A stretch of 64,000 nt of DNA from Nitrospiraceae bacterium (GTDB lineage: Bacteria > Nitrospirota > Nitrospiria > Nitrospirales > Nitrospiraceae). The stretch lies in assembly GCA_050246315.1 (NCBI GenBank), contig JBFWWG010000009.1, positions 117,812-181,811 of the forward strand, read 5' to 3'. The notes beneath the pieces were generated by a model. The model made no database searches, had not been told where the DNA came from, and saw only the letters and a program-made list of their open reading frames with translations. The translations under genes and the position numbers were made by a program. This document shows positions 20,220-64,000 of the stretch, one piece after another. How positions within the stretch are numbered: the first letter of the stretch is position 1; each line of letters begins with the position of its first letter.

Positions 20220-20247
20220 CGCCTCGACCCGACCCTGGCAGTATGGT

Positions 20248-21756: not shown

Positions 21757-21814
21757 AGGCAAACTCGAAAGTCTGTTCCCGAAACCTGTGCAAGCACCAT
21801 ATGTGGGTCAGGTG

Positions 21815-23266: not shown

Positions 23267-23270
23267 TCCA

Positions 23271-23370
23271 CATGGGTCATGACGGTTCGAGACGGTTCAC
23301 CCGTTGCAATCTGTGATCAACGGGTGTCCGCGGCGTATCGGTGGTTCCAGTAGAGGCGGTCATGAATCAT
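23271..23370 (+). promoter_or_regulatory. Intergenic motif with phased ACGGTTC repeats and hairpins; second copy at 39936
   Basis: 29/33 identity with 39936..39968; perfect stem CACCCGTTG/CAACGGGTG (23298-23326). Confidence 0.55.
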
Positions 23371-23423
23371 CTGGGTTAGCTGAACGAACGATTCTCGCAG
23401 GGAATTGGGCGGGTTGAATCGGT

Positions 23424-25927: not shown

Positions 25928-25959
25928 TGGGCGTTCCTGGATCGATTGACGGGAGAATC

Positions 25960-27132: not shown

Positions 27133-27161
27133 TCCGGGTTACGGGGTGAGCGAGCCGGTGA

Positions 27162-28286: not shown

Positions 28287-28347
28287 TGGAGTCGAGATGC
28301 GCGAGCCGGGCAACGGCCGGCCGCTGAGACGGGGAGTCAGAACATCG

Positions 28348-29733: not shown

Positions 29734-29742
29734 GCTGCCGTC

Positions 29743-30696: not shown

Positions 30697-30733
30697 TGCC
30701 GCCTCAACCATCGTCTGACATGAGAGGGACTTC

Positions 30734-32556: not shown

Positions 32557-32559
32557 CGC

Positions 32560-33801: not shown

Positions 33802-33851
33802 CCATCAGTGGGAACGGAAGCCCGGGATACTTCCGAGAGGGAGGGAGCCAC

Positions 33852-43888: not shown

Positions 43889-45249
43889 TCGTCGATGATG
43901 AGCCGAGTTTGCGGGATGTGTTGGGCATCATGCTCAAGAAGGCCGGCTATACGACCACGTTGGCGGCCGACGGAGAAGAAGCCGTCTCGCAGCTCAACAA
44001 GGAGATTTACGATCTGGTCATTACCGATCTCAAGATGCCAGGAGTCGGAGGGATGGAGGTCCTGAAGGCCGTGAAGTCCGCCTCCCCGGACACGGTGGTC
44101 TTGGTCATCACGGCGTTCGGTTCTCCCGACACGGCTGTTGAGGCGATGAAACTCGGGGCGTATGACTATCTGACGAAGCCCTTTCAGGTCGATGAAGTCC
44201 AGCTCATCATCAGGAATGCGCTCGAAAAGCGCCGGCTCTCGGCCGAAAACATGCTGCTCAAGCGGGCGATGGCGAGCCATTCCTCCCTCTCCAACATCAT
44301 CGGGCAAAGCGACGCGATGCAACAGGTCTTCGACGTCATCTGCAAGGTGGCCGATACGCGGAGTAATGTGTTGATCTGCGGAGAGAGCGGGACCGGAAAG
44401 GAACTGGTCGCTCGGGCGATTCACTACAACAGCGCCAGAAGCCAAATGCCGTTCGTGGCCGTGAATTGCAGCGCGATGCCCGAGACCCTGCTGGAAAGCG
44501 AATTGTTCGGCCACATGAAAGGATCCTTCACCGGCGCGATGGCGAACAAGGCCGGTCTGTTCGAGATTGCGAACGGCGGCACGATCTTCCTGGATGAGAT
44601 CGGCGATATGACCATGGCCACGCAGGTCAAGCTCTTGCGCGTGATCCAGGAACGGGAGTTTCGCCGGGTCGGGGGAACCCAGGATGTCAAGGTGGACGTG
44701 CGGATTGTGGCGGCGACCAACCGCGATCTGGAGCGGGCGGTGGCCGAAGGTATCTTTCGGGAGGATCTCTACTATCGGCTGGACGTGATCCCTATTCGAC
44801 TTCCTCCCTTGCGGATGCGCACGGGTGATATTCCGCTGCTCGTGCAACATTTTCTGGAACGATTCTCGAAGGAATCGGGCAAGCCGAGTCTGGCCGTGAC
44901 TCCAGATGCCGTCGAGGCGCTGGTCTCGCACGAATTCAGGGGCAATGTGCGGGAGTTGGAAAACCTCATCGAGCGGGCCGTGGCCTTTTCGACCGGGGGA
45001 CCGATTACGGCCGACGATGTACGGGCGTGGTTGCACAAGCCGGCTGCGACGCAGGCGTATCCCACGGATCTCCCGCCCGAAGGGTTGGATTTGGAAGGCC
45101 TGATCTGTAAGATAGAAAAAGACCTGCTGATGAAGGCGCTGGAACGATCGGGCTGGGTCAAGAAAAAGGCCGCCCGCCTGTTGCAGCTCAACACGCGCTC
45201 ATTCCGGTATCGGCTCGAAAAGTATGCCATCAAAGGAGGGCGCGACTAA
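43873..45249 (+). CDS. pilR: Sigma54-dependent response regulator PilR-like
   Basis: Receiver (VVDDE, TDLKMP), GESGTGKE, GSFTGA, FLDEIG, C-terminal Fis-type HTH. Confidence 0.9.
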   Translation: MEKILVVDDEPSLRDVLGIMLKKAGYTTTLAADGEEAVSQLNKEIYDLVITDLKMPGVGGMEVLKAVKSASPDTVVLVITAFGSPDTAVEAMKLGAYDYLTKPFQVDEVQLIIRNALEKRRLSAENMLLKRAMASHSSLSNIIGQSDAMQQVFDVICKVADTRSNVLICGESGTGKELVARAIHYNSARSQMPFVAVNCSAMPETLLESELFGHMKGSFTGAMANKAGLFEIANGGTIFLDEIGDMTMATQVKLLRVIQEREFRRVGGTQDVKVDVRIVAATNRDLERAVAEGIFREDLYYRLDVIPIRLPPLRMRTGDIPLLVQHFLERFSKESGKPSLAVTPDAVEALVSHEFRGNVRELENLIERAVAFSTGGPITADDVRAWLHKPAATQAYPTDLPPEGLDLEGLICKIEKDLLMKALERSGWVKKKAARLLQLNTRSFRYRLEKYAIKGGRD

Positions 45250-51763: not shown

Positions 51764-52039
51764 ATGGGTGCACGCAAACAGTTCACGCCCGAGTTCAAGC
51801 GCGAAGCCGTCCAGTTGCTCGAGAGCGGGACTCGCCCCGCCTCGCAGATCGCCCGCAATCAACTCTATAAATGGCAGACGGAACTGCGGGCCCGCGGGGT
51901 GGGCGCCTTCCCGGGGTGCGGGGCCCGCAAGGAACGGACGACCGAGATCGCTCGCTTGAAACGCGAGTTGACCCGCGTCACCGAAGAGCGAGATATTTTA
52001 AAAAAAGCGGCGGCGTACTTCGCCAGAGCGTCCCAGTGA
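51764..52039 (+). CDS. IS3 OrfA (HTH), probably with a short internal deletion
   Basis: RKQFTPEFKREAV...QIAR-NQLYKW...EERDILKKAAAYFA; the usual ELGI segment is missing. Confidence 0.8.
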   Translation: MGARKQFTPEFKREAVQLLESGTRPASQIARNQLYKWQTELRARGVGAFPGCGARKERTTEIARLKRELTRVTEERDILKKAAAYFARASQ

Positions 52040-52878
52040 AGTACGCCTTTATCCGCGCCCACCGGCAGGAGTTTCGCCTGGCTCGGATGTGTCGAGTCCT
52101 CCAGGCGAGTCGCCGTGGCTTCTACGGCTGGCGACGGCGACAGCCGAGTATTCGGACGCAGGCCAACCAGCGGCTGATGGAGCGGATGCAGGTGTTGCAT
52201 CACCAGACGCGGGAAGCCTACGGGGCGCGCAAGATGTGGCAGCTGTTGAAGCGCGACGGGCTTCAGTGTGGTCGGCATCGGGTGGCGCGACGGCGGCGCA
52301 TGGCTGGGATCGTCGCGCGCCGCCGTCAGCGGTTTGTCCGCACGACGCAGGCCCGGCATCAGGACGCGGCCGCGATCCCCAATCGCCTGAACCAGCAGTT
52401 GACGATCTCGACCAGGAACCGCGTCTGGGCCGCGGATTTCACCTTCGTGCCGACCCGGACCGGGTGGTTGTATGTGGCCGTGGTGCTGGATTTGTATTCC
52501 CGGCGGGTCGTGGGGTGGGCGATGAGCCCACGCCAAAGTTCCGTGGTGGTGATCGACGTCTGGCTCATGGCTTGGCACCGTCGCCGCCCCGCGCCGGGAC
52601 TCATCCATCATAGGGATCAAGGCAACCAGTATCGGGCCTGCGTGTATCAACGAATGCTCGCACGTCGCGGGGTCGTGCCCAGCATGAGTCGCAAGGGCAA
52701 TGGCTATGACAATGCGCCGGTGGAGAGCTTCTTCAGCTCCTTGAAGAACGAGTTGGTGCGGCATCGGCGCTTCGCGCACCACGCGGAAGCCCGCGATGCC
52801 ATCGCGGAATATATCGAAGTGTTCTACAATCGCCAGCGCCTCCATCAAGCGCTCGCATGGAGTCAGGGTCAGGCATGA
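52036..52878 (+). pseudogene. IS3 OrfB DDE transposase, C-terminally truncated
   Basis: YGARK, NRVWAADFT, DLYSR, HHRDQG.QY, DNAPVESFF, FYN..RLH; ends before the LGY.SP motif. Confidence 0.8.
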
Positions 52879-52975
52879 GTATTGACTCGGAGCGGTTATG
52901 ATTGTGCTGCTCGGTCCGGTTTCTTGACTAGTTGCGGACTGGCAGACGAACGCACGCTCGTTGAGATCGCCCTGG

Positions 52976-54361
52976 CTACGCCTCCGCAGGCAGTTCTTCA
53001 AACCGCGCCGTGAAATGCCGGAGCACCGGCGCTTCATAGATCATTTTTAATCCGCGAATATTTTCTCTGCGCCGGTGCAGCGCCACGATCGATTCCGCCA
53101 CATAGGTGATCTGCATGTTCGTGTACACGCGCCGAGGGATCGCGAGCCGGACCAGCTCAAGCTGCGGATGCAGCGCCTGCCCAGTCGCCGGGTCCTTCTT
53201 TCCAAACATCACCGTCCCGATCTCGACTCCGCGGATGCCGTATTCTCGATAGAGCGCCGCGGCCAGCGCTTGAGCCGGAAACTGAGCCTGGGAGAGCTGC
53301 GGTAGGAACTCCTTGGCGTTCAGGTACACGGCATGGCCGCCGACGGGCTTGACGATCGGAACGCCGGCCTGGTCGAGCAGCTCGCCCAGGTATCGGACCT
53401 GTCCGATGCGGAAGCTCAAATAGTCCTCGTCGAGCACCTCTCGCAGTCCGCGGGCCATCGCTTCCAGGTCGCGTCCGGCCAATCCTCCATAGGTCGGAAA
53501 CCCTTCGACCAGGATCAACATGTTGGTAATGTCTTGGGTCCATTGGTCATGGTTCAAGCTCAAAAACCCGCCGATGTTTACCAACCCGTCTTTTTTGGCC
53601 GACATGGTACAGCCGTCTCCATAACTGAACAGCTCCCGGGCGATGTCGAGTATCGACCGGTCTTCATAGCCCGGCTCCCGCTCCTTAATGAAGTAGCAGT
53701 TCTCCGCAAAGCGGCAGGCGTCGAAGAACAACGGAATGCCGTAGCGCGTGAGCAACCTTCTCGTGTCGCGGATATTCGCCATCGAGACCGGTTGGCCGCC
53801 CCCGCTGTTGTTGGTGATCGTGAGCAGCACCAGCGGGATGCGTTCACGCCCGATCCGGTTGATCGCCTCTTCCAGGCGAGAGAGATCCATATTGCCCTTG
53901 AATGGGAGGTCGCAATGCGGGTCGTAGGCCTCCTTGATGACCAGATCCAGGGCCTCGGCCTGCTGGTGTTCGACGTTGGCGCGGGTGGTGTCGAAGTGGA
54001 TGTTGTTCGGCACGCACATACCGGGCTTCACGACCGTCGAGAAGAGCAGGTTTTCTGCCATCCGTCCTTGGTGGGTCGGGATGACATGCCGGTACCCGAA
54101 GATCGAGCGCACGGTCTCTTCAAAGTGATAGTAGTTCTTGCTGCCCGCATAAGACTCGTCGCCGAGCATCATGCCCGCCCACTGGTTGTCGCTCATGGCC
54201 GCGGTGCCGCTGTCCGTAAGTAGATCAACATAGACGCTGTCGGCCGGAACCTGGAAGAGGTTGTAGCCGGCCTCCCGCAACAGGCTGTCACGTTCTTCGC
54301 GGGTGGTCCTGCGGATGGGCTCGACGACCTTGATCTTGAACGGCTCGGAAGGAAACTTCAT
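52976..54361 (-). CDS. tnaA: Tryptophanase (tryptophan indole-lyase)
   Basis: EPFKIK.VE, DLLTDSGT, GDESYAG, HQGR, FDTT, SAKKD (PLP Lys), LRHFTARF; Asp in FDTT and His in LRHF favour tryptophanase over tyrosine phenol-lyase (FTTT/LRFF); ATGA overlap with the upstream regulator. Confidence 0.88.
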   Translation of the reverse strand: MKFPSEPFKIKVVEPIRRTTREERDSLLREAGYNLFQVPADSVYVDLLTDSGTAAMSDNQWAGMMLGDESYAGSKNYYHFEETVRSIFGYRHVIPTHQGRMAENLLFSTVVKPGMCVPNNIHFDTTRANVEHQQAEALDLVIKEAYDPHCDLPFKGNMDLSRLEEAINRIGRERIPLVLLTITNNSGGGQPVSMANIRDTRRLLTRYGIPLFFDACRFAENCYFIKEREPGYEDRSILDIARELFSYGDGCTMSAKKDGLVNIGGFLSLNHDQWTQDITNMLILVEGFPTYGGLAGRDLEAMARGLREVLDEDYLSFRIGQVRYLGELLDQAGVPIVKPVGGHAVYLNAKEFLPQLSQAQFPAQALAAALYREYGIRGVEIGTVMFGKKDPATGQALHPQLELVRLAIPRRVYTNMQITYVAESIVALHRRRENIRGLKMIYEAPVLRHFTARFEELPAEA

Positions 54362-55329
54362 GGGAAGGCTTTCTGGAAGCGCGCCAGTTCGGCTTTGAAA
54401 GCCTGACGTCCTGCATATTCGAACACGTACCGCGTCATGTCGAACAGCGGAGCGGGATTCAAGTCGCGGATGGCCTCCGGCTTCCACGTGATTTCGAGTT
54501 GGCTGATCATCGTGATCGGCGTCGGTTTGCCGACCATTCCCAGCGGCACCTGTCCGTATGATTGGGAAAAGATCAGGATCTCGCCGTCGAACATGGCCGC
54601 GTTGATATCATGGGCCGCCCCCTGTTTCCGATAATCCTCTTCGAACCGACAAAAGGCCGGGGAGCGATCCAATTCCTCCCGGAACGAGAAAAAGATCTTG
54701 ATCCCGGCGCGCTGCTGATTGTCCATCACTTCAATGGCGTCCGATACAAGCGACTCGTCGCGCATCTGCTCACTCGATAGCACTAAGAGTCGGCGAATGA
54801 CGACTCCTCGTTTGGCTGCGGCTTGGTTGGCCAGGAGATAATTGGGATAGAGCGCTTCGCCCTTTTTCCAGATGTTCCATCGTTCCATGACCGCATCGAT
54901 CGAGCGTTCAGCCGTCTCCACCAGACGAACGGCCTCGGCATTGGCGGCCGCGCCTTCATAGACAAGCGTCTGCGATTCGAGCTGCCGCAGCTCTCGTCCG
55001 ATCGCCTCAACCTTCTTCGGGAGGTATTTGGGCTGTTTCGGGACATGGAGCATCACGTCAACCGCGGTCCGGGCCAGCGTCCAATATTGTTTGGCGGAGG
55101 CGGGAGCCTTGTCCTTCTGAGCCACCAGCAACAGTTCCACCGGATTGCGATCGAGGAGCTTGGCAATCTTGATGCACAGTTCCGGTTTGGGAATCTTGAG
55201 CCCGCGACGCATCAGGTTGGCCTCGGGCTGGGCGATGCCGAGCTTATCGGCCAGCGCATAATCGCTGGTCAGCCCATATCGCTCCTTCACCGCGTCAAAA
55301 TAGCCTGCGATCTCTGTCATGCTGGCCAC
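54358..55329 (-). CDS. XRE/phage-repressor-like HTH protein with uncharacterised C-terminal domain
   Basis: YFDAVKERYGLTSDYALADKLGI..P....MRRG HTH-like N-terminus; about 230-aa alpha/beta C-terminal domain (AAKRGVVIRRLLV). Confidence 0.75.
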   Translation of the reverse strand: MASMTEIAGYFDAVKERYGLTSDYALADKLGIAQPEANLMRRGLKIPKPELCIKIAKLLDRNPVELLLVAQKDKAPASAKQYWTLARTAVDVMLHVPKQPKYLPKKVEAIGRELRQLESQTLVYEGAAANAEAVRLVETAERSIDAVMERWNIWKKGEALYPNYLLANQAAAKRGVVIRRLLVLSSEQMRDESLVSDAIEVMDNQQRAGIKIFFSFREELDRSPAFCRFEEDYRKQGAAHDINAAMFDGEILIFSQSYGQVPLGMVGKPTPITMISQLEITWKPEAIRDLNPAPLFDMTRYVFEYAGRQAFKAELARFQKAFP

Positions 55330-55333
55330 GCCT

Positions 55334-55603
55334 TCATCCTTTCGAGGGTCCGCCGATCAGGTACTCCACCTCTCCATCCGAATCCGAACTCCAATCGGAG
55401 AGACTCCGGCAGAGTCTCCAGTTGCGGATGTGCGGATGCAACCCATATCGGGCGGGCGCTTGATGGACAAAATGGACAAAGAGGTGAAGGCACGCAGGAT
55501 CGTCGAAGTGAGTCTCGAGCAAATCATGCGCCAGCGGTCTGCGGAGCGTATAGCCGGGCAGTCTGGTCGCATACTCATCTGCCGGTGAGGAGATCCAGCG
55601 CAC
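55334..55603 (-). CDS. Small hypothetical protein
   Basis: 89-aa ORF that fills the gap between the diiron enzyme and the regulator; its stop lies in the regulator's RBS region; weak own RBS. Confidence 0.4.
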   Translation of the reverse strand: MRWISSPADEYATRLPGYTLRRPLAHDLLETHFDDPACLHLFVHFVHQAPARYGLHPHIRNWRLCRSLSDWSSDSDGEVEYLIGGPSKG

Positions 55604-55616
55604 ATATGAACTGAAC

Positions 55617-56354
55617 CTAACCGGCCCGCCGTCGAGCCAGATGCTCCCACGTCTTTGCCGAGGTTGCCGATCGGTTTGCCAGTCCCATCCAGAAGCCCTC
55701 CAGATAATTCAGGACGGTAGTGACCCCGGACCGAAAGTCGGCCTTGTCCTGATCGGACATGCCTCCATGGGTTGTGTCATGCACGGCTGCCACCGCGTGT
55801 TCCATCGCCTCCTCATGTGTGGATTCGAGCTGGCGGTGAAACGTGAAATAGGTGATGTCCATTTGAGGGTGCCGGGTCGCTCTCAGGCGAGTGAGCCCGG
55901 GGATTAGGTGGTCCCACATGGTGATGGCCATGTTCTCCAGACCGAAGGACGCGCCCAGGGCCTTGGCGTGGTTACCGTCGCTGTAGAGCCGATCCATGCC
56001 GTCGATGTAGGCGCGGGTGGAAGGCAGCATCGGGCGAGCCATGGCATCGTGGACCGAGATGCCGACCGAACGGAGAAAGTCGCGATAGAGCAACTCATGC
56101 CGATTTCGGGTTTCGCCGTCGCCCAGTTCGGAATACAGCACCTTTGTCAATTCGTCCGCCACTTGCTCATCTTCCGTGTTCACCAGTTGAGCGGCAAGGA
56201 TGCGGGGGAAAAAACGGGCGAAATTGTAAAACTCAACGGCGAACTCGCACAATTCCTGGTCGGTGATCTCGCCGGTCTTGAATCGGTCCAGGTAGGGATT
56301 GTTGATCGCGCCGTGGCGAAGGACGGATTCCCGCATTTCTCCGTGGAAGGTCAT
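55617..56354 (-). CDS. Heme-oxygenase-like diiron (HDO; PqqC/TenA/CADD-fold) redox enzyme
   Basis: Ligand-like pattern SELG..H, GLE, YFTFHRQLESTH (HxxxExxH); HxxxNNPYL N-terminus; FW C-terminus; AGGAGG RBS. Confidence 0.85.
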   Translation of the reverse strand: MTFHGEMRESVLRHGAINNPYLDRFKTGEITDQELCEFAVEFYNFARFFPRILAAQLVNTEDEQVADELTKVLYSELGDGETRNRHELLYRDFLRSVGISVHDAMARPMLPSTRAYIDGMDRLYSDGNHAKALGASFGLENMAITMWDHLIPGLTRLRATRHPQMDITYFTFHRQLESTHEEAMEHAVAAVHDTTHGGMSDQDKADFRSGVTTVLNYLEGFWMGLANRSATSAKTWEHLARRRAG

Positions 56355-56499
56355 GGGTGCCTCCTGACGCCGTATTGCCTAAGCTGCATGAATGATATTA
56401 CTTTCATATCGCCAAAACAAGAACGAACTTCTTGTAATGGAGATGCTGCCGCCGATGGCGTAGGAAAAGTCCTACGAAGCGGCTTTGGTGTGCAAAATT

Positions 56500-56580
56500 C
56501 AGGGATGCAGGTATAATAGCAAAAATATATTGGGCAATATGAATACCATTGTTATATTGCGACACATGTTGTTATACTCA
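56500..56580. promoter_or_regulatory. AT-rich divergent control region with inverted repeat
   Basis: GCAATAT(56534)-13 bp-ATATTGC(56554); extended -10 TGtTATACT at 56570-56578; TATAAT at 56512. Confidence 0.55.
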
Positions 56581-56670
56581 ACCAAGCGTTGAGTATGCAT
56601 CGCCTCTCACATGCCTGCACGACGATTCACCGGGAGCAGCAAGACTCCAGCGGCAATAGGAGGTCACATC

Positions 56671-57267
56671 ATGCGCGGCTCAATGGGCATCGATCACATC
56701 ACACTCTGCGTGGAAGACCTGGACTCAGCGGAATACCTCTTCACCAAGGTGCTCGGATTTGAGGTGATCTGGTCGGCCCGGGACGTGGGCAGCGACAAGT
56801 CCAGCATGGATACCGTCGTCGTCCAGCGGGGAGACGCCAAGATCGCGCTGATGCAGGGACGGGATAAGGTGGTTAAGTCTCAAATCAATGAATTCATCGA
56901 AAAATATGGGCAGGGCGTACAGCACGTGGCGGTTGAAGTGGACGACATCGAGGCCGTCTGCCGAGAGTGGGAGGCTCACGGTGTGAAATTCAGCGGTCCA
57001 CTCAAGGATGGGCGTGACGGGTTCGGTCCCCTCAAGCAAAGGTTCACCTACCCGCTGTTCTCGGGGGCCGGTGTGTTCCTTGAACTGACGCAACGGGAAC
57101 ACGGTGGGGAGGCATCTAAGACCTTCGTCCGGAGCACGGTCGAGTCTCTCTACAAAGACATCGAGCGGGACCAGATCAATGGAGTCGAACAGACGATCAT
57201 CGAGTACAAATCGAGTCCGGCGTCGATCCATCGAAGGCGGAAGACGAGTCACAAACGGGCATCGTGA
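56671..57267 (+). CDS. Single-domain VOC protein resembling the catalytic half of 4-hydroxyphenylpyruvate dioxygenase
   Basis: IDHI, SQINEFI...G.GVQHVA, LKQ.FT.PLF...FLELTQR...F...V..LY..IERDQ (His/His/Glu triad); AGGAGG RBS. Confidence 0.82.
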   Translation: MRGSMGIDHITLCVEDLDSAEYLFTKVLGFEVIWSARDVGSDKSSMDTVVVQRGDAKIALMQGRDKVVKSQINEFIEKYGQGVQHVAVEVDDIEAVCREWEAHGVKFSGPLKDGRDGFGPLKQRFTYPLFSGAGVFLELTQREHGGEASKTFVRSTVESLYKDIERDQINGVEQTIIEYKSSPASIHRRRKTSHKRAS

Positions 57268-57326
57268 TGGCCTTGTCTCGGGATATCTGGTAGAGATGAG
57301 ATTGCCGCGTGTGACGGAGGTCCGTC

Positions 57327-58448
57327 ATGTACTTGCTGAAAAAGGGTAAGGTGCCGGTTCAAGCGCATGTGGCCATCCCCGTGGGGCAATACGAGGAAGA
57401 GCACGGCCGACAGGGGTTTAGCGGTCCCGTTTCTCATTTATACCGCACTCATCCACCCACCGGATGGGTTCGCATTGAAGGTCCTCTTCGTCCCCGCGCA
57501 TTTGCGTGCTCCGACCTTGCGACACCGGATCTACGATCGTCGGACGGTCGGCCAACCGAAATCCTCCGCAGCCCGGACAGCGTCGTCTTCATCTCGCGGC
57601 GCACCGGCTCGATGTCCCATCTTGTTCGAAACGCGGATGGAGACGAGGTGCAGTTCATCCACGCAGGGCGAGGACGGTTTGAAACAGATTACGGTTCTCT
57701 GCCCTACGAGCCAGGCGACTACATTGTGATTCCCAAAGGCACGACCTATCGCGTCATGGTGGATTCCTCGCCCTCGTTGTTCCTGATCGTCGAATCCGAG
57801 GAAGCCGTCCGCTTGCCCGATCGGGGACTGCTTGGGCAGCATGCGCTCTTCGATCGTGGACTCTTGGCCGCTCCGGAGGTGGATGGCGGTTCGTTCCCGT
57901 CCGACAAACACTCCGCAGAGACACGCGAATGGGAGGTTCGGATCAAGCGTCATGGAGAGTACACTCGCGTCTGGTATCCGTTCGACCCATTGGATGTCGT
58001 GGGTTGGAAGGGCGACCTCTGGGTGGCCAAGCTCAACGTGCGGGATTTTCGTCCCGTGACCAGCCCGCGATATCATCTACCTCCGTCCGTCCATGCGACC
58101 TTTCAGGCCGGAGGGCTCTTGATTTCGACCTTCGTGCCACGGCCGCTGGAAAGCGATCCCGAAGCGCTCAGGGTCCCCTTTTACCATCGGAACATGGACT
58201 ACGACGAGGTATTGTTTTACCACCGAGGGGACTTCTTCAGCCGCGCCGGCATACAGCCCGGTATGCTCACGGTGCATCCGCAAGGCATCCATCACGGCCC
58301 TCAACCGCAGGCAGTCGAGGCTAGCAAGGGGAGAACGCACACCGATGAGGTGGCCGTGATGATCGAATCCCGCCGGCCTTTTGCTGTCTCATCCGAACTC
58401 GAAACGGTCGAACAAAAGGATTATGCCCTCAGTTGGAGTCGGCCATGA
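57327..58448 (+). CDS. hmgA: Homogentisate 1,2-dioxygenase
   Basis: EE.G..GF.G..S.LY, RNADGDE, PLDVVGWKG, HLPPSVH, VPFYHRNMDYDE, HPQGIHHGP. Confidence 0.93.
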   Translation: MYLLKKGKVPVQAHVAIPVGQYEEEHGRQGFSGPVSHLYRTHPPTGWVRIEGPLRPRAFACSDLATPDLRSSDGRPTEILRSPDSVVFISRRTGSMSHLVRNADGDEVQFIHAGRGRFETDYGSLPYEPGDYIVIPKGTTYRVMVDSSPSLFLIVESEEAVRLPDRGLLGQHALFDRGLLAAPEVDGGSFPSDKHSAETREWEVRIKRHGEYTRVWYPFDPLDVVGWKGDLWVAKLNVRDFRPVTSPRYHLPPSVHATFQAGGLLISTFVPRPLESDPEALRVPFYHRNMDYDEVLFYHRGDFFSRAGIQPGMLTVHPQGIHHGPQPQAVEASKGRTHTDEVAVMIESRRPFAVSSELETVEQKDYALSWSRP

Positions 58449-59431
58449 AACTCGCGAGCTTTCAGGTTCGCACACCTGTGGGAGTATTCACCAAGATCGG
58501 AGTTGTCCTCGGCGCCCACCTGATAGATCTCAACATGGCCTATACGCGTTGGCTGGCGGATCATAAGGAGGCGCAACCGTACCGGTTGGCCGCCGCCCAG
58601 ATGCCGGCGACGATGCTGGAATTTTTGGAGGGAGGCTTCTCAGCGATGGACGCGGCCCGTCGGGCTTTGGAACATGCCGTGTCTTCGGGGAGTGAAGTGA
58701 AGGGACCGGCCGGCGAGACGATCTTTTACGAGCACGCACACGTGCGGGTGATCGCTCCCTTACCCAACCCCTCGTCCCTCCGTGATTTCATTGCGTTCGA
58801 GGACCACATTGCCGCCACGTCTAAGCGACGGGGTCAACCCATCCCTCCCGAATGGTACAAGGCGCCGGTGTATTACAAGGGCAACCACCGGACGATTATC
58901 GGCCCCGATCAGGATTTGCCTTGGCCGCTGGCCACCACAAAGTTGGATTACGAACTCGAACTGGCCTGCGTTATCGGACGACAGGGCAAGGATCTCTCAG
59001 AGCAGAGCGCCGCCGAGTCCATCGCGGGCTATACGATCATGAACGATTTCAGCGCGCGGGATGTTCAATTCCAGGAGATGGCCTGCCGGTTGGGGCCCGC
59101 GAAGGGAAAGGATTTCGCCACGGCCATCGGACCCTATCTGGTGACCGCCGATGACGTACCGAATCTCAACGACCTGACGATGATCGCGCGGGTCAACGGT
59201 GAGGAGTGGTCGCGTGGGCGATTCGGATCGATCTACTGGAGCTTCCCTCAGATGATCGCACACGTGTCGCGGGGTGAGAGTCTCTATCCAGGCGACCTGT
59301 TCGGATCAGGAACGGTGAGAGGAGGCTGCGGTTTGGAGCTCGATCGCTTTCTGCAGCCGGGCGATGTTGTGGAACTGGAGATCCAGCCGATCGGAATCTT
59401 GAGAAACCGCGTGGTGAAGAAGGGGGAATAG
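58445..59431 (+). CDS. Fumarylacetoacetate hydrolase family protein
   Basis: RDFIAFEDH, PVYYKGN, LDYELE, NDFSARD.Q, AKGKDF, GDLFGSGT. Confidence 0.92.
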   Translation: MKLASFQVRTPVGVFTKIGVVLGAHLIDLNMAYTRWLADHKEAQPYRLAAAQMPATMLEFLEGGFSAMDAARRALEHAVSSGSEVKGPAGETIFYEHAHVRVIAPLPNPSSLRDFIAFEDHIAATSKRRGQPIPPEWYKAPVYYKGNHRTIIGPDQDLPWPLATTKLDYELELACVIGRQGKDLSEQSAAESIAGYTIMNDFSARDVQFQEMACRLGPAKGKDFATAIGPYLVTADDVPNLNDLTMIARVNGEEWSRGRFGSIYWSFPQMIAHVSRGESLYPGDLFGSGTVRGGCGLELDRFLQPGDVVELEIQPIGILRNRVVKKGE

Positions 59432-59543
59432 AGAACACAGGCGGTGAAATGAGAGGGCACGCAGAGAATCCCGTGCGATGTTTCTCCGCGGGCGTCAGTT
59501 CCGTGAAACGATAAAGGGCCCGGGCTCAACCGAAGGTTGGTAG

Positions 59544-59597
59544 AGAGGGGCGTCGCCCAGTGAGCCGCCGGTTCTAGCGAAGCTCGGTATGGAGGAA
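59544..59597 (+). repeat. Copy of the rplY leader 3' part including the RBS
   Basis: 50/54 identity to 47667..47720. Confidence 0.85.
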
Positions 59598-59599
59598 AG

Positions 59600-60367
59600 A
59601 TGATGAGCGTCAAGCTCACGCAGGAATCGCCCCTTTCTGAATTGATGGAACGGCACCGCAAACTCTACGTGAGCACGGAGATCGACGCGAAGCTGGAACG
59701 GCTCATTCGAAAGGGGCCGTACTCGGATCTGTCGGAGTGGGACATCCATCGCATTCTGCGCACCGCGCAGGCGGTGTTGTTCGATACCCATGTCGAGGTC
59801 GTGTCCGGCCATCACACGGCGACCTACCTGCGATTTGAATCGATCGCGCGGTACCAGGAACTCATCGGCTTGATCGTTCGTGACATGGCGACATGGTTGG
59901 CACGCACGTTCGACAAGGAACCGATTGCCGGCATCGTGGCGACTACTTCGGCAGCCGCGCAACTGGCGGAGGGAGTGGTGAAGCTGCTCCATGACCAGCA
60001 GAACCGCATGGAACTGCGCGTGATCTTGACGCCGTACAACTGTGAGACGGGACGGATCGGCACCGAGATCGCCGAGCGGTGCATTACGCTCGGCGAACGG
60101 TTCGTGGCGCTCAACGATGTGACCACCCGCGGGAATTGTGTGAGCAAGCTCGGCAAGGTGATTACGGATCACGGGGGCCGTCTGGCCGGCATGATGGTCT
60201 TCGCCCGCCGGGACAGCGGTCAATTCCCACTCATGGACGAACTGATCGCCACCTATCCCTTCTACTGCACGACGGATCTGGACATGCCGCAATGGGAGCC
60301 GGATCGTTGCCCGCTCTGTCGAGACCGGCAGCCCTTGCTGTCTTGGAGAGACATGCCAGAATTGTAG
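59600..60367 (+). CDS. Divergent type I phosphoribosyltransferase (PyrE-like)
   Basis: H.EVVSGHHTATY, PRPP-loop variant ALNDVTTRG, C-terminal WEPDRCPLC. Confidence 0.72.
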   Translation: MMSVKLTQESPLSELMERHRKLYVSTEIDAKLERLIRKGPYSDLSEWDIHRILRTAQAVLFDTHVEVVSGHHTATYLRFESIARYQELIGLIVRDMATWLARTFDKEPIAGIVATTSAAAQLAEGVVKLLHDQQNRMELRVILTPYNCETGRIGTEIAERCITLGERFVALNDVTTRGNCVSKLGKVITDHGGRLAGMMVFARRDSGQFPLMDELIATYPFYCTTDLDMPQWEPDRCPLCRDRQPLLSWRDMPEL

Positions 60368-60403
60368 GCGACGTCACCCTCACACATCGGCAGGAGGTAG
60401 CTC

Positions 60404-61405
60404 ATGGACCAGGCGGAGGTGAAACGGGATATCAAGCGGGCCGACCTGCTGCAGATGTACTACTACCTTCGGCTCACCAGAGCCATCGAGGATCGTATCA
60501 GCGCCCTCTACCGGCAGGGACGCATCGTCGGCGGCTGTTACACCAGCCATGGGATGGAGGCTATCGCCGTCGGTTATGCCTCGGCCCTGGAGCGAGACGA
60601 CGTCATCGCGCCCTTCCACCGAGATATGGGCGCCTTCCTGATCCGGGGCATCACGCCGGGCGAAGTGATCGCCCAGTACCTGGGCAAACGTGCCGGCCCT
60701 GCCAAAGGTAAGGACGGCAACGTCCATATGGGCGATCTGAAACGGGGCATCATCGGGTTTGTCAGCCACTTGGCAGACAACCTTCCGGTCGCGACCGGTG
60801 TGGCGCTGGCCTTCAAAATGCGAGGCGAAGCCCGGGTCGTGTTTACCGGTACGGGCGACGGCGGAACCAGCCGGGGCGATTTTCATGAAGCGATGAACTT
60901 CGCGGCCGTCCGCAAACTGCCGGTCGTCATCTTCTGCAACAACAACCAATATGCCTACTCCACGCCGATTCGGTATCAAATGGCGATTCAGGATGTCGTC
61001 GAGCGGGCCAAGGCCTATGGGATGCCGGGCGAGATCGTCGACGGCAACGACGTAGCGGCCGTGTATCTGTCTTCCAAGCGGGCAATCGCCCGTGCCAGGT
61101 CCGGGGCGGGACCGACGTTCCTGGAATTCAAAACGATGCGGATGCACGGTCATTCAGAACACGACCCAGCCAAGTATGTGCCGCGCGAGTTGTTGGAGGA
61201 ATGGAAACGAAAGGATCCGATCCTGAACGCGGAGCGGCTCCTGACGCAACTCGGCTATGGAGACGGCGCCTATTTCCACGAGGTCGGGGAGCGCGTCAAG
61301 AAGGAGATCGAGTCCGCCGTGGAGTTTGGGGAACAGAGTCCCTTACCGGAGGGGCCTGAAGCCTTGGAGGGGGTCTTCGCCACCCAACGGGAGGTCGCAT
61401 CATGA
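60404..61405 (+). CDS. 2-oxoacid dehydrogenase E1 alpha subunit
   Basis: GDGGTS.GDFHEAMNFA...NNQYAYSTP TPP motif, VDGND, RMHGHSEHD. Confidence 0.93.
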   Translation: MDQAEVKRDIKRADLLQMYYYLRLTRAIEDRISALYRQGRIVGGCYTSHGMEAIAVGYASALERDDVIAPFHRDMGAFLIRGITPGEVIAQYLGKRAGPAKGKDGNVHMGDLKRGIIGFVSHLADNLPVATGVALAFKMRGEARVVFTGTGDGGTSRGDFHEAMNFAAVRKLPVVIFCNNNQYAYSTPIRYQMAIQDVVERAKAYGMPGEIVDGNDVAAVYLSSKRAIARARSGAGPTFLEFKTMRMHGHSEHDPAKYVPRELLEEWKRKDPILNAERLLTQLGYGDGAYFHEVGERVKKEIESAVEFGEQSPLPEGPEALEGVFATQREVAS

Positions 61406-62406
61406 GCACGACCATGACGAGCGTCGAAGCCCGCACGGAAGTCACGTATCTGGAGGCGATCTCCCAGGCGTTGGACGAGGAGATGGCACGCGACAGCCGG
61501 GTGTTCCTGATGGGGGAAGACATCGGGATTTACGGAGGCGCGTTCAAGATCACGGAGGGGTTTATTCAGAAGTACGGGGAATGGCGTGTGCTTGACACGC
61601 CGCTGGCCGAATCTGGTTTCGTCGGTGCGGCGATCGGAGCGGCGATGATGGGACTGCGGCCGGTTGTTGAAATGCAGTTTGCGGACTTCATCTCTTGCGC
61701 CTTCGATCAGATTACCGAGGTGGCGGCCAAGAATCATTATCGTTGGGGTGCGCCGGTGCCGATGGTCATTCGGGCGCCGTTCGGCGGCGGTGTGCATGGC
61801 GGGCCCTTTCACTCCGAATGTCCCGAGGGTTGGTTCTTTCATTCACCCGGGCTCAAGCTCGTGGCGCCCTCCACCCCCTACGACGCCAAGGGGCTGCTGA
61901 AGGCCGCCATCCGCGATCCCAATCCGGTCATCTATTTCGAGCACAAGTTTCTCTACCGGCGCATCAAGGGCCAGTTGCCCAAGGAGGATTTCGTTGTGCC
62001 GATCGGGCAGGCAGACATCAAGCGGCGGGGGAACGATATCTCGGTCATGACCTACGGCGCGATGGTGCACGTCGCGCTGGAGGCGGCGGAGCTGTTGAGC
62101 CGGGAGGGGATCGATCTCGAGGTGGTTGACCTGCGAACCCTGATTCCGCTCGACAAGGACACGATCTACGAATCCGTGCGGAAGACCAGCAAGGCCATTC
62201 TCCTGCACGAGGACAACAAGACCGGCGGCATCGGCGCCGAAATCGCGGCGTTGCTGGCGGAGGACTGTTTCGATTGTTTGGATGGACCGGTGATGCGGAT
62301 TGCGGCGCCGGATACGCCGGTGCCGTTCAGTCCACCGCTGGAGGAGTTTTTCCTTCCCAAGGCCGCCGACGTGGTGGCCGCAGCGAAGAAGTTGGCAGCC
62401 TATTGA
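61402..62406 (+). CDS. 2-oxoacid dehydrogenase E1 beta subunit (branched-chain type)
   Basis: GEDIG..GG.F..T.G, DTPLAE, EMQFADF, PFGGGVHGGPFHS, FEHK.LY. Confidence 0.93.
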   Translation: MSTTMTSVEARTEVTYLEAISQALDEEMARDSRVFLMGEDIGIYGGAFKITEGFIQKYGEWRVLDTPLAESGFVGAAIGAAMMGLRPVVEMQFADFISCAFDQITEVAAKNHYRWGAPVPMVIRAPFGGGVHGGPFHSECPEGWFFHSPGLKLVAPSTPYDAKGLLKAAIRDPNPVIYFEHKFLYRRIKGQLPKEDFVVPIGQADIKRRGNDISVMTYGAMVHVALEAAELLSREGIDLEVVDLRTLIPLDKDTIYESVRKTSKAILLHEDNKTGGIGAEIAALLAEDCFDCLDGPVMRIAAPDTPVPFSPPLEEFFLPKAADVVAAAKKLAAY

Positions 62407-62410
62407 AGAT

Positions 62411-62503
62411 CGTCAATGGTCAAGCGGCATGCGTCAATCGCGGAAGCCGATAACCGTATGTTCACCCCTGAGCCGAGTGACAATTGACGAATGACGATTG
62501 ACG
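62411..62503. repeat. Inverted heptamer array, same family as 2039..2139
   Basis: CGTCAAT GGTCAAG CGGCATG CGTCAAT ... AGTGACA ATTGACG AATGACG ATTGACG. Confidence 0.8.
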
Positions 62504-62517
62504 CATAAGGGAGTGTT

Positions 62518-63687
62518 ATGGCGACCGACATCGTTATGCCTCAATTGGGCGAAAGCATCGCGGAAGGGACAGTGGTGAAGTGGCTGGTCCCGAAAGGCGG
62601 CAGAATCGAGAAGGATCAGCCGTTGCTCGAGGTGGAGACCGACAAGGTCGCGTTGGAAATTCCTTCGCCGGCGAGCGGTCTGCTTACCGAGGTGCTGGTC
62701 GCTGCCGGGAACACGGTTCCCGTCGGTACGTTGCTCGCCCGGCTCGATGGAGGCGCCCCGTCCGAACCTGGAGTTATCAACCGGGTCGGTGGAGTGGTGG
62801 TGCGTCCGGCAGAATCGAAGTCCGACACCGGTGAACATTATTCTCCTGCCGTCCGTCAACTGGCGAAGGAACAGGGAGTGGATTTGCATCTGGTCATCGG
62901 GACGGGTGAGGGAGGACGTGTGACGAAAAAGGACGTGCTGGCCTTTGTCGCTAAGCGCGAACCCACAGTGACGCAATCGACCCCGGTTGGAGTGAAATGC
63001 GAAACGCCGGACGAGCTGCGAGGTCAAGACGAAATACTCCCTCTCACTCAGATGCGTCGGACCATCGCCGAGCGAATGGTGAATAGCACACAGACCGCCG
63101 CCCACGTGGCCACCTTCTTCGAAGTCGACTGCTCCGAAATCGCCAGAGTTCGCCAGGGACGATCATTGACCTATCTGCCGTTCGTCATCTGCGCCGTGAG
63201 TCTCGCGCTCAGAGATGTGCCGGTCCTCAACGCCTCCTGGAGCGATACGGGCATCCTGCTCAAGCAGGCGATTCACATGGGCATCGCTGTCTCGCTCGAT
63301 GATGGACTGTTGGTGCCGGTGATCCGCCATGCCGACCGTAAGGGGTTGCTGGCACTGTCCAAAGAGGTGGCCGACCTCGCCGAGCGCGCGAGGAGCAGGA
63401 AGCTGACCCCGGAAGAAGTCCAAGGCGGCACCTTCACGATCACGAATCACGGCGGATTCGGGAGCCTCTTCAGCACTCCGATCATCAACCAACCCCAGAT
63501 TGCGATCCTCGGGGTCGGCGCCGTACAGAAGCGCGCCATCGTCATCAACGACGCGATCGCGATCAGGCCTATGTGTTACCTCAGCCTCTCGTTCGATCAT
63601 CGGGTGATCGACGGCGCAACGGCGGATCGCTTCATGGCCAAGATCAAGCACGAGATGGAACAGCATGACTGGGAGAAGCGGCTATGA
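62518..63687 (+). CDS. Dihydrolipoamide acyltransferase E2
   Basis: Lipoyl domain VETDKV, E3-binding SPAVR...GTGEGGRVTK.D, catalytic DHRVIDG. Confidence 0.95.
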   Translation: MATDIVMPQLGESIAEGTVVKWLVPKGGRIEKDQPLLEVETDKVALEIPSPASGLLTEVLVAAGNTVPVGTLLARLDGGAPSEPGVINRVGGVVVRPAESKSDTGEHYSPAVRQLAKEQGVDLHLVIGTGEGGRVTKKDVLAFVAKREPTVTQSTPVGVKCETPDELRGQDEILPLTQMRRTIAERMVNSTQTAAHVATFFEVDCSEIARVRQGRSLTYLPFVICAVSLALRDVPVLNASWSDTGILLKQAIHMGIAVSLDDGLLVPVIRHADRKGLLALSKEVADLAERARSRKLTPEEVQGGTFTITNHGGFGSLFSTPIINQPQIAILGVGAVQKRAIVINDAIAIRPMCYLSLSFDHRVIDGATADRFMAKIKHEMEQHDWEKRL

Positions 63688-63850
63688 CGCATCGATCGCA
63701 AGCCGTGATCGTGAGCGTGGTGAAGACTCCGAGCGGGAGCTTCAACGGGGTCTTCAGTCCCGTGTCTGCCACAGGGCTCGGCCACCTCGCCATCGCCGAA
63801 GCCTTGAAACGCATCGACCTTCGTTCAGATCGCGTGGACGAAGTCTCTAG
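63684..63850 (+). pseudogene. Thiolase (acetyl-CoA acyltransferase) N-terminus, interrupted
   Basis: Not in the ORF track. MTHRSQAVIVSVVKTPSGSFNGVFSPVSATGLGHLAIAEALKRIDLRSDRVDEV; thiolase similarity stops at CTAG 63847-63850; ATGA overlap with E2. Confidence 0.8.
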
Positions 63851-64000
63851 CAGGCTGCGGGAAAACTCGATTCGTGTGCTTCGACAGGCTGCTATGTGGA
63901 TGTCAAGTGGATGGACACAAGAATCCTCTTTCGGTTGTCAGCTGCGTGTCCTTTCAGGCCAAAGAGAGACTGGCTGCTATGCGTGGCACGGCACACGGCC
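63851..64000 (+). mobile_element. Left end of an inserted element (MITE and/or IS5/IS1182-like IS), runs off the window
   Basis: CTAG then CAGGCTGCGGGAAAA, similar to the 50177 element ends; an ORF starting MRG at 63979 could be a transposase N-terminus. Confidence 0.55.

Follow-up and report, generated by a model that had tools for sequence, protein, structure and literature searches.

The closest described counterparts of the locus studied here include bacterial homogentisate operons, such as VC1344-VC1347 of Vibrio cholerae (hppD-hmgA-fah-maiA), in which VC1345 was proven by complementation to be the homogentisate oxygenase (PMC3114702). Related genes are also found in the bkd operons, with their E1alpha-E1beta-E2 order. 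In this work we analyzed a stretch of 64,000 nucleotides (hereafter, the window) from the genome of a Nitrospiraceae bacterium (GCA_050246315.1, designated G000), which contains a locus composed of two divergent arms and comparable to both systems. The window comprises the last 64 kb of contig C9 of this genome (4.39 Mb, 30 contigs, 100% complete by marker genes). Gene assignments are based on Pfam and NCBIfam profile matches against curated cut-offs. The left arm, located on the minus strand, encodes a heme-oxygenase-like diiron oxidase (HDO), a regulator with a predicted XRE-type helix-turn-helix (HTH) domain and a tryptophanase (TnaA). The right arm, on the plus strand, starts with a gene for a one-domain HPPD-like protein (mini-HPPD, or VOC after its single domain), followed by genes for a short homogentisate 1,2-dioxygenase (HmgA), a FAH-family hydrolase, a phosphoribosyltransferase (PRT)-fold protein, the E1alpha, E1beta and E2 subunits of a 2-oxoacid dehydrogenase and by the start of a thiolase gene.

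The right arm resembles the V. cholerae operon in the order of the HPPD-like, HmgA and FAH-family genes and in the metal ligands of HmgA. The HmgA orthologue of Nitrospira moscoviensis is even labelled 'putative dioxygenase VC_1345' in MicroScope, a likeness by label and gene order. The differences include the one-domain structure of HPPD, the absence of maiA from the genome, the HpcE-like character of the FAH-family protein and the presence of the PRT-fold and 2-oxoacid dehydrogenase genes in the same arm. The E1/E2 genes share with bkd operons the subunit order, overlapping genes and a single lipoyl domain, and their orthologues are annotated as bkdAA and bkdAB, but NCBIfam places E1beta in a pyruvate dehydrogenase subfamily and the locus contains no E3 gene. 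Overall, the genes make up a cluster for homogentisate and branched-chain catabolism in which HPPD is truncated, the isomerase is missing, HDO and the PRT-fold protein are additions and the regulator is of an unusual kind.

On the present evidence, this is not a categorically new system. The initial annotation of the window, made from the sequence alone, had singled it out as a candidate undescribed system. The individual genes already carry annotations in public genomes (HGD, putative HPPD, tnaA, bkd), two of them being discussed in print as starvation-induced amino-acid catabolism. We found no paper treating the locus as a unit, HDO, the one-domain HPPD, the tryptophanase (TIL) signature of the lyase or the regulator fold, and none joining Nitrospira with tyrosine phenol-lyase (TPL) or with heme-oxygenase-like diiron proteins. 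Judged by titles and abstracts, the literature matches for Nitrospira combined with either homogentisate or tryptophanase had no bearing on the locus, and PMC12342949 and PMC8407350 contain none of the searched catabolic terms.

We conclude, with a probability of about 0.65, that the locus forms the core of an accessory island in Nitrospiraceae, which is induced by starvation and serves amino-acid catabolism. What the analysis shows directly is the identity of the genes, the catalytic residues of their products, the synteny kept among relatives, the gain and loss of the genes together and their common induction in a related species. The island would be nearly silent in the presence of nitrite and would be induced on its exhaustion, when amino acids, probably derived from the cell's own protein turnover, would be oxidized for reductant and carbon. 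Tyrosine would be transaminated to 4-hydroxyphenylpyruvate, which the one-domain HPPD-like enzyme would convert to homogentisate. The short HmgA would then open the ring, and the FAH-family hydrolase would split the product into (male/fumar)ate and acetoacetate. Since the genome contains no maleylacetoacetate isomerase, the hydrolase may take the maleyl form directly; such a shortcut exists in the gentisate pathway. The E1/E2 complex would oxidize branched-chain or other 2-oxoacids, and the downstream thiolase, hydroxyacyl-CoA dehydrogenase, acyl-CoA mutase and HMG-CoA lyase would complete the acyl-CoA chemistry. Where present, TnaA would convert tryptophan to indole, pyruvate and ammonia. All substrates in this scheme, the link between the regulator and its operators, and the roles of HDO and of the PRT-fold protein are putative.

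Nitrospira are the main nitrite oxidizers of soils, waters and treatment plants, and their survival of substrate gaps is a practical question. If the proposed scheme is true, an O2-dependent module for burning amino acids is present in about two thirds of the genera sampled from the family and was not found in the rest, which constitutes a testable ecological difference. In addition, the natural one-domain HPPD offers a test of the need for the N-terminal domain, and the locus provides a putative homogentisate route that does without maleylacetoacetate isomerase, as well as an HDO clade and a type of predicted HTH/PLD-fold regulator that are both new.

Conservation, gain and loss of the locus

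The proteins of the window were compared by tblastn with 80 related loci. All of these belong to Nitrospira or Nitrospiraceae, including the complete genome of N. moscoviensis (L016). Therefore, the host is a nitrite-oxidizing chemolithoautotroph, a Nitrospira, in agreement with the probable lifestyle suggested at first.

The VOC gene adjoins the HDO gene in 77 of the 80 loci, and in the other three the locus ends within 700 bp of HDO. VOC is always followed by HmgA. In all 74 loci holding at least two genes of the right arm, this arm is colinear and lies on the opposite strand upstream of HDO; thus, the two arms stay together and divergent in relatives, as the proposal of a single locus had implied. 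In 45 of the 80 loci (including L041, where the overlap is 2 bp), the regulator gene starts within 400 bp of the end of HDO; the distance is 3.2 kb in one further locus and exceeds 5 kb in 18 (L004, L006, L007, L009, L010, L012, L013, L017, L023, L033, L037, L051, L053, L065, L067, L069, L070 and L073). In four loci it lies upstream of VOC on the other strand, and in 12 loci it was not found, two of them having no room for it. Of the 40 loci that leave at least 1.5 kb behind the regulator, 38 have TnaA there; L064 carries a gene for an acyl-CoA dehydrogenase (ACAD) instead, giving the order HDO-regulator-ACAD.

The long inserts between HDO and the regulator were annotated in L007 and L023 and encode an acyl-CoA synthetase, thiolase, 3-hydroxyacyl-CoA dehydrogenase, enoyl-CoA hydratase and patatin-like lipase, as well as an acyl-CoA dehydrogenase in L023; the start of the same beta-oxidation cassette is seen in L002. 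At the other end, the right-arm thiolase is followed, in L016 and on contig C16 of the studied genome, by genes for a 3-hydroxyacyl-CoA dehydrogenase, the large subunit of an acyl-CoA mutase, a YtnP-like protein and a B12-binding subunit, with an HMG-CoA lyase gene further downstream. Because the neighbors are beta-oxidation genes, a mutase, an HMG-CoA lyase and a 2-oxoacid dehydrogenase, the locus is the center of a larger island for acyl-CoA, branched-chain and fatty-acid catabolism and not a dedicated aromatic cluster. The dedicated regulon for tryptophan, phenylalanine and tyrosine assumed in the initial annotation thus gives way to a wider catabolic block in which TnaA is dispensable (absent from 6 of 37 VOC-positive genomes and from 2 of the 40 loci with room for it). 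For its second suggestion, indole-based signalling, nothing was found in support.

It should be mentioned that the YtnP-like protein, with a metallo-beta-lactamase fold, is encoded between the acyl-CoA mutase subunits (G000:C16:3875-4735, L084) and scores 208.7 with the lactonase model, the cut-off being 425. By its position, we take it to be the orthologue of NITMOv2_0054, a Lactamase_B protein of comparable length (282 aa).

The distribution of the island was studied in a sample of 61 family genomes with at least 90% completeness, G000 included. Of these, 37 gave a match to VOC, 39 to HmgA and 38 to E1beta. HmgA and VOC disagree in two genomes, in both of which the HmgA gene lies at a contig start, and HmgA and E1beta disagree in one, which contains HmgA without an E1beta match. 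At the genus level, HmgA is present in 22 of the 31 sampled genera. Orthologues of TnaA (at least 78% identity) were revealed in 33 of the 61 genomes, two of which contain TnaA without VOC. A separate order-level sample gave HDO orthologues in 22 of 50 family genomes. Among the 21 genomes included in both searches, HDO and VOC are both present in 10 and both absent from 11, without discordant cases. Hence the island is gained or lost as a single accessory block, of which TnaA is an optional member. The joint loss of HDO and VOC taken alone is weak evidence for a joint function, because the two genes are adjacent and a single deletion removes both.

Induction of the orthologues in N. moscoviensis during nitrite starvation

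A proteome of nitrite-deplete versus nitrite-replete N. moscoviensis was published by Leung et al. (ISME J 2022; PMC9381531). According to its Table S1, the strongest increase in the block under nitrite-deplete conditions was that of the HDO orthologue NITMOv2_0065 (144-fold), followed by the orthologues of VOC (NITMOv2_0064, 62-fold), the metallo-beta-lactamase-fold protein NITMOv2_0054 (22.6-fold), TnaA (12.6-fold), E1alpha bkdAA (10.9-fold), E1beta bkdAB (9.9-fold), the PRT-fold protein (NITMOv2_0061, 6.1-fold), ACAD NITMOv2_0068 (4.9-fold), HmgA (NITMOv2_0063, 4.3-fold), the FAH-family protein (NITMOv2_0062, 3.6-fold), E2 (NITMOv2_0058, 3.6-fold) and the regulator (NITMOv2_0066, 3.5-fold). 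HDO, VOC and TnaA went from 0 to 9-28 spectral counts on starvation, and the induced counts were 67-71 for HmgA and 18-19 for VOC (PMC9381531). The locus holds the most strongly induced proteins of this published starvation proteome. The text of the article discusses only two of its members, the putative HPPD (62-fold up) and the branched-chain dehydrogenase (10-fold up), as catabolism of amino-acid reserves; HDO is annotated as 'unknown function'.

The locus tags were tied to the orthologues in two ways: the molecular weights of the L016 translations equal the table values to the third decimal in seven of seven cases, and the genome coordinates that Mundinger et al. (2019; PMC6606698) list in their supplement agree with L016. 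In nitrite-fed N. moscoviensis, HDO, tnaA and the regulator occupy transcript ranks 2893, 3416 and 3559, respectively (Mundinger et al., 2019, PMC6606698), which fits the three genes being off as long as nitrite is supplied.

In the species of the window itself, the stretch is contained in 20 RNA-library runs from seven studies. Contigs from four RNA runs of four studies cover both arms; being assembled contigs, they report presence only, and not level, strand or ends. The HDO-side contigs of three studies stop at 56358-56372, which may hint, weakly at best, at the end of a transcript.

Weight of the evidence and the possibility of independent units

Several observations weigh against the reading of the locus as the core of a starvation-induced catabolic island. 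As to its integrity, six of the 37 VOC-positive genomes, one of them a single-contig genome of the same genus, do not contain TnaA, the inserts of more than 5 kb part TnaA from HDO in 18 loci, and in this genome, as in L001, the right-arm thiolase gene is a pseudogene. As to its chemistry, the scores of mini-HPPD, HmgA and the FAH-family protein lie far under the NCBIfam equivalog cut-offs, the FAH-family protein is nearer to HpcE-type enzymes than to true fumarylacetoacetase, and no maleylacetoacetate isomerase was found anywhere in the genome. Neither was a methylmalonyl-CoA epimerase found in the genome above the cut-off, despite the downstream acyl-CoA mutase, VOC being the best epimerase-like match, and no result links HDO to any substrate. 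As to its expression, the widely different fold changes within one arm (VOC 62-fold, HmgA 4.3-fold) mean that the right arm does not behave as one simple operon, HmgA and FAH being present at a considerable basal level. The co-induction was observed in a single study, under one condition and in one species, whose orthologues are 67-87% identical, and it could be a global starvation response rather than the work of a shared regulator. Nitrite starvation is the sole trigger shown; of the co-regulation of the two arms by aromatic compounds that was expected at first, their common rise was observed, with this other trigger.

Part of these observations would be explained if the locus consisted of two or three unrelated units (a tryptophan/indole unit of regulator and TnaA, an orphan HDO, and a tyrosine and branched-chain operon) that adjoin each other through common descent and rise together only through the general response of catabolic genes to starvation. 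Such units could account for the six VOC-positive genomes without TnaA and the two genomes with TnaA and no VOC, for the cassettes of 7-9 kb that separate HDO from regulator-TnaA in 18 of the 80 loci, for the gene order of L064 and for the spread of fold changes from 2 to 144 across the block. The extensive proteome remodelling reported for the same nitrite experiment (Leung et al., PMC9381531) would also agree with them. However, HDO and VOC share their spacer in 77 of the 80 loci, none of the 21 genomes covered by both searches has one without the other, and the regulator stays with the block even in the four loci where it is found on the VOC side. Furthermore, the shared spacer contains two conserved palindromes, and HDO, VOC and TnaA all appear from zero on starvation. 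We regard independent units as unlikely.

The divergent spacer and the regulator

The view of the arms as diverging from an AT-rich region with an inverted repeat was confirmed: the GC content of the spacer is 47.5-50% compared with about 59% in the flanks, and it contains four inverted repeats. Alignment of the spacers of 75 loci revealed two conserved blocks. The first is a palindrome at 56390-56412, about 37-58 nt upstream of the HDO start. The second (56509-56558) includes an AT-rich box, another palindrome of the ATATTG-nn-CAATAT type and an extended -10 element. At 56574-56596 there is a perfect inverted repeat of 9 bp around a 5-nt loop, which is specific to this species and not conserved. 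Ahead of this repeat, within 56549-56596, there is also a local duplication of a -10-like TGTTATA(T/C)T motif, which most relatives do not have.

Only two sigma-70-like sites were detected in the region 52800-57400, both in the second block and pointing at VOC. Their number is not above chance (2 versus a shuffle mean of 1.7), so that their position in a conserved block alone counts. The promoter/terminator scan revealed no terminator-like sites. The start of VOC, previously placed at 56611, was corrected to the ATG at 56671, which is preceded by AGGAGG and gives a protein of 198 aa.

We propose that the regulator acts at the two conserved palindromes of the spacer and that HDO and mini-HPPD are the genes most tightly switched from it. 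The starvation switch would operate mainly on these two genes. Since the fold changes are unequal (62-fold for VOC and about 4-fold for HmgA and FAH), the right arm probably contains additional internal promoters of a more constitutive type.

The regulator, at first described as phage-type, appears instead to consist of an XRE-type HTH joined to a PLD/Nuc-fold domain. Its match to HTH_3 is just below the cut-off (22.6 bits vs. 23; E 1.1e-4), and the structural model shows a five-helix N-terminal domain. In this model (pLDDT 79), the N-terminal HTH is followed by a poorly modelled linker and the C-terminal PLD/Nuc-fold domain. Residues 108-311 align to Nuc (1byr) with a Z score of 14.8 and an rmsd of 2.3 over 139 aa, and the C-terminal domain matches the effector domains of TrmB and TrmBL2 with Z scores of 11-12. 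No HxK(x)4D motif was seen by eye in an alignment of 26 regulator sequences, where the lone His near the expected site varies, and residues 70-320 are covered by no Pfam family. As modelled, the protein is similar to TrmB (3qph/2f5t) and TrmBL2 (5bqt) in combining a DNA-binding domain with a non-catalytic PLD-like effector domain. It differs from the TrmB family in having a predicted XRE-type HTH_3 rather than the TrmB winged helix and shares no sequence similarity with it. TrmB senses sugars.

The diiron oxidase

The best solved relative of HDO is BesC (7twa, 62 bits), followed by CADD (1rcw, 33 bits). HDO belongs with them to PF14518 and has the same six-residue E/H/E/H/E/H ligand set; the residues E76, H86, E140, H173, E177 and H180 align with those of BesC and CADD and are invariant in 80 of 80 orthologues. 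The scores with the NCBIfam subfamily models are below the cut-offs (66 vs. 500 bits for BesC and 64.3 vs. 200 bits for CADD), and the assignment of HDO as a CADD-type pABA synthase was rejected as unsupported (64 bits vs. the cut-off of 200). The best 120 homologues listed are all at least 74% identical to HDO, and those with organism names come from Nitrospira or Nitrospiraceae. Thus, HDO forms a clade of its own. In ESM Atlas it falls into generic 'iron-containing redox enzyme / TenA' clusters. The setting of HDO is catabolic and starvation-induced, unlike those of BesC and CADD, which are biosynthetic and folate-related, respectively.

With low confidence, HDO may be described as an O2-dependent oxidase of a free amino acid or of an aryl/2-oxo acid, feeding or complementing the homogentisate branch. 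A bolder hypothesis, which we consider doubtful, is that HDO and mini-HPPD, which share a promoter region, are gained and lost together and lead the block in starvation induction, form a new oxygenase pair representing an undescribed entry into the homogentisate pathway. In one version, phenylalanine would be processed via phenylpyruvate and hydroxyphenylacetate, in a genome without phenylalanine hydroxylase (PAH) or paa genes. In another version, HDO would perform a new oxidative reaction on a free amino acid as the key step by which starving nitrite oxidizers respire their endogenous amino acids. In this connection, the absence of PAH, tryptophan 2,3-dioxygenase (TDO) and maleylacetoacetate isomerase (maiA), noticed earlier for the locus, was found to extend across the whole 100%-complete genome. 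A search of the genome for paa genes and for another HPPD or another hmgA was also negative. Phenylalanine is thus left without a recognizable route in this genome. Unfamiliar enzymes might fill the missing steps, as the initial annotation supposed.

A second HDO paralogue was found on another contig (G000:C2:260628-262312; L083:1339-3023). It matches PF14518 with 78 bits, is about 21-23% identical to the HDO of the window and overlaps by 4 bp the gene for a formylglycine-generating-enzyme / EgtB-C-like protein. The two genes may constitute a separate small oxidative system.

Tryptophanase and the small-molecule hypothesis

Among solved structures, the lyase matches TPL best (556 bits), ahead of tryptophanases with 502 and 410 bits. 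Of the NCBIfam models, it exceeds only the cut-off of the tryptophanase subfamily NF009709 (688.5 vs. 285); it falls below the equivalogs TIGR02617 (520.1 vs. 825.8) and NF053783 (605.7 vs. 750), as well as below the tyrosine phenol-lyase model TIGR02618 (630.7 vs. 720.7). Five positions are reported to discriminate the two enzymes: D137, F304, V394, I396 and H463 in TIL versus T124, M288, M379, R381 and F448 in TPL (PMC5805759). In a gap-free alignment to the TPL of Citrobacter freundii, the lyase reads D124, F288, V379, I381 and H449, that is, five of five TIL-type and none of five TPL-type residues, and the TIL-type residues are kept in 36-39 of 39 orthologues. Because all five specificity positions are of the TIL type and conserved, we call the lyase a tryptophanase on sequence grounds, as did the initial annotation. 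It shares with E. coli TnaA and C. freundii TPL the fold, the PLP lysine pair K256/K257, Y71, R217, R405 and the TIL residues. It is unlike known TIL proteins in being closer to TPLs overall, in passing neither equivalog and in its translational coupling to the regulator gene: the regulator stop and the tnaA start overlap as ATGA, as noted before and read here directly in the sequence. Neither a tnaC leader nor a tnaB permease was seen at the locus.

The proximity of HDO and tryptophanase raises the question of whether the left arm makes a small molecule from an aromatic amino acid. Reportedly, AetD and AetE, an HDO and a tryptophanase-type enzyme, act together on an aromatic amino acid in aetokthonotoxin synthesis, and BesC, the best solved relative of HDO, is a biosynthetic enzyme. 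Alternatively, the induced HPPD could overproduce homogentisate for pyomelanin that protects starved or oxidatively stressed cells, with which the much higher induction of VOC (62-fold) than of HmgA (4.3-fold) would agree. Nevertheless, even after induction HmgA is far above VOC in spectral counts. Moreover, no halogenase, P450, NRPS/PKS, transporter or tailoring gene was found in or near the locus, all neighbors are catabolic, and TnaA is dispensable where HDO is retained. Either form of this explanation is therefore very improbable.

It should be mentioned that some genomes of the family contain, elsewhere, tandem paralogues of the beta-eliminating lyase that are 49-51% and 32-36% identical to the TnaA of the window (for example, G100:C3:45799-48519, G112:C19:62267-64987 and G146:C6:43464-46181). 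They were not found in the studied genome.

The one-domain HPPD-like protein and the proposed homogentisate branch

The mini-HPPD matches TIGR01263 with 86.8 bits, below the cut-off of 277, and covers only positions 155-263 of the 353 positions of the profile. In the whole-genome TIGR01263 search (67 bits) it is the sole HPPD-like gene. Its best PDB matches are HPPDs, to which it aligns in the C-terminal catalytic domain only. The residues H9, H85, E138, Q71, Q84, Q123 and F125 and the C-terminal helix segment are common to two-domain HPPDs and invariant in 62 of 62 orthologues. Thus, the protein shares with the HPPD family (TIGR01263; 1sqi, 1t47) the His/His/Glu iron triad, the C-terminal helix and the Gln and Phe residues of the active site, but it is devoid of the entire N-terminal VOC domain and is 198 aa long as compared with about 350-390 aa. 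We infer from these residues that mini-HPPD is a putative homogentisate-forming dioxygenase.

The family is rare: an exhaustive search of 1.84 billion cluster representatives yielded only 124 with E < 1e-10. Outside the Nitrospirales cluster, the full-length short relatives among these were a handful of metagenomic proteins (172-205 aa, 30-44% identity to mini-HPPD), and two-domain HPPD-like proteins came next, with 28-33% identity. We scanned 33 of the 150 listed relatives, 19 of them two-domain and 14 short. The 4HPPD cut-off was exceeded by 11 of the 19 two-domain proteins, and the methylmalonyl-CoA epimerase cut-off by none of the 14 short ones. Cluster look-up outside Nitrospirales gave a Kaiserbacteria record and a 44%-identical short relative named epimerase by JGI. 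Metagenome scans with two short VOC relatives from outside Nitrospirales revealed no confirmed locus.

The 60 bits that mini-HPPD obtains with the epimerase model are non-discriminating, because bona fide two-domain HPPDs score 43-88 bits with the same model. We consider it least probable of all that VOC is a methylmalonyl-CoA (or related acyl-CoA) epimerase serving the mutase, with the HmgA-like and FAH-like proteins acting on another substrate: its full-length TIGR03081 match (60-61 bits, the best epimerase-like match of the genome, where none exceeds the cut-off), the mutase subunits downstream in the same arm and the JGI name of its relative are outweighed by its higher scores with HPPD than with epimerase (86.8 vs. 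60 in NCBIfam, 52.8 vs. 26 bits in PDB), its length, the HPPD-specific Q-H, L-x-Q-x-F-T and E..R motifs kept together with the C-terminal helix segment, and the constant presence of HmgA behind it.

HmgA is the only hmgA-like gene product of the genome and is named HGD in public sources. It exceeds the Pfam gathering thresholds in both parts (HgmA_N 46.0 vs. 20.2 and HgmA_C 26.2 vs. 21) and is below the cut-off of TIGR01015 (78.9 bits, or 78.3 in the genome search, vs. 510.75). The ligands H287, E294 and H323, invariant in 63 of 63 orthologues, align to the H..E..H iron ligands of 3zds. The FAH-family protein is above the gathering threshold of FAA_hydrolase (201.3 vs. 23.9) and below those of FAA_hydrolase_N (16.6 vs. 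25) and TIGR01266 (87.8 vs. 375.3). In PDB it matches the C-domain of HpcE with 124.6 bits, 8sky with 110.7 and true FAH with 62.

The PRT-fold protein and the 2-oxoacid dehydrogenase

The PRT-fold protein has no Pfam PRT match. The best Foldseek match of its model (pLDDT 90) is HP1257 of H. pylori (4paw, OPRT type), with a probability of 1.00, 17% identity and TM scores of 0.73 on the target and 0.58 on the query. The canonical PRPP-binding loop consists of an acidic pair followed by T/S-G-x-T/S. The loop L-N-D-V-T-T-R-G-N, invariant in 25 of 25 orthologues, resembles this consensus but is shifted. The possibility that this gene is the pyrE of the cell was rejected, since a canonical pyrE is located on contig C1.

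All Pfam domains of E1alpha, E1beta and the lipoyl-E2 are above their cut-offs. E1beta passes the pyruvate dehydrogenase subfamily model (358.9 vs. 321), and E1alpha and E2 are below every equivalog cut-off.

Layout and borders of the locus

The coordinates of all features are presented in Table 1.

Table 1. Features of the divergent locus and its right border (positions in the window).
Feature	Position	Strand	Basis
Tryptophanase (TnaA), 461 aa	52976-54361	-	Beta-eliminating lyase 276.7 bits; NF009709 688.5 vs. cut-off 285
Regulator, 320 aa: predicted N-terminal XRE-type HTH and C-terminal non-catalytic PLD/Nuc-fold domain	54358-55320	-	HTH_3, predicted fold
Species-specific spacer with 'small ORF', probably non-coding	55321-55616		Matches L001 only
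Heme-oxygenase-like diiron oxidase (HDO), 245 aa	55617-56354	-	PF14518 (Haem_oxygenas_2) 91.7 bits vs. 28.9
Divergent control region, AT-rich, 316 bp	56355-56670		GC 47.5-50%; two conserved blocks
One-domain HPPD-like dioxygenase (mini-HPPD, VOC), 198 aa	56671-57267	+	Single VOC domain, best family 4HPPD
Short homogentisate 1,2-dioxygenase (HmgA), 373 aa	57327-58448	+	HgmA_N and HgmA_C
FAH-superfamily hydrolase, 332 aa, presumed maleyl/fumaryl-acetoacetate hydrolase	58433-59431	+	PF01557 FAA_hydrolase 201.3 bits
Type I phosphoribosyltransferase-fold protein	59600-60367	+	Weak pyrE_Therm match 36.8 bits; predicted fold
2-Oxoacid dehydrogenase E1 alpha	60404-61405	+	E1_dh 254.6 bits
2-Oxoacid dehydrogenase E1 beta	61402-62406	+	Transket_pyr and Transketolase_C
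Lipoyl-bearing E2 acyltransferase	62518-63687	+	Biotin_lipoyl, E3_binding, 2-oxoacid_dh
Thiolase gene 5' fragment, disrupted	63684-63845	+	Thiolase_N; matches thiolase residues 7-53
End of multi-copy insertion sequence with terminal inverted repeats	63846-64000		Breaks thiolase gene and assembly

The 'small ORF' previously included in the left arm proved not to be conserved. Among the 80 loci, the small ORFs at 55334-55650 match only the near-identical L001, and the stretch is single-copy in the genome. They were rejected as a gene, as they lie in a 287-bp spacer specific to this species and L001.

At the right border, the thiolase start recognized earlier does carry Thiolase_N from 63684, but only about 54 codons remain before the end of a multi-copy insertion sequence (IS) interrupts the gene at 63846, where the contig stops as well. 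This 155-bp IS end recurs with 95-98% identity at six more contig termini (C26, C4, C1, C30 and the two of C19), and its tips of about 45 bp are scattered across the genome. The remainder of the thiolase is located at C16:232-1009 (L084); it contains stop codons and has 47% identity to the thiolase of N. moscoviensis.

An IS3-type transposase gene (rve, HTH_21) occupies positions 51871-52878 on the plus strand, immediately left of tnaA. A 390-aa ORF at 51865-53037 was rejected as a gene, being an antisense frame of the IS transposase. The 2.3-kb segment 50677-52949 differs from the 98%-identical L001, which points to a strain-specific insertion or replacement. Farther to the left, a histidine kinase of the PilS type is paired with a sigma-54-dependent response regulator at 42197-45249, and the genes ispE, prs, L25, pth and ychF come next. 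The window also includes the complete dcw cluster for cell division (18501-35045); thus, the island is bordered by ordinary core genome.

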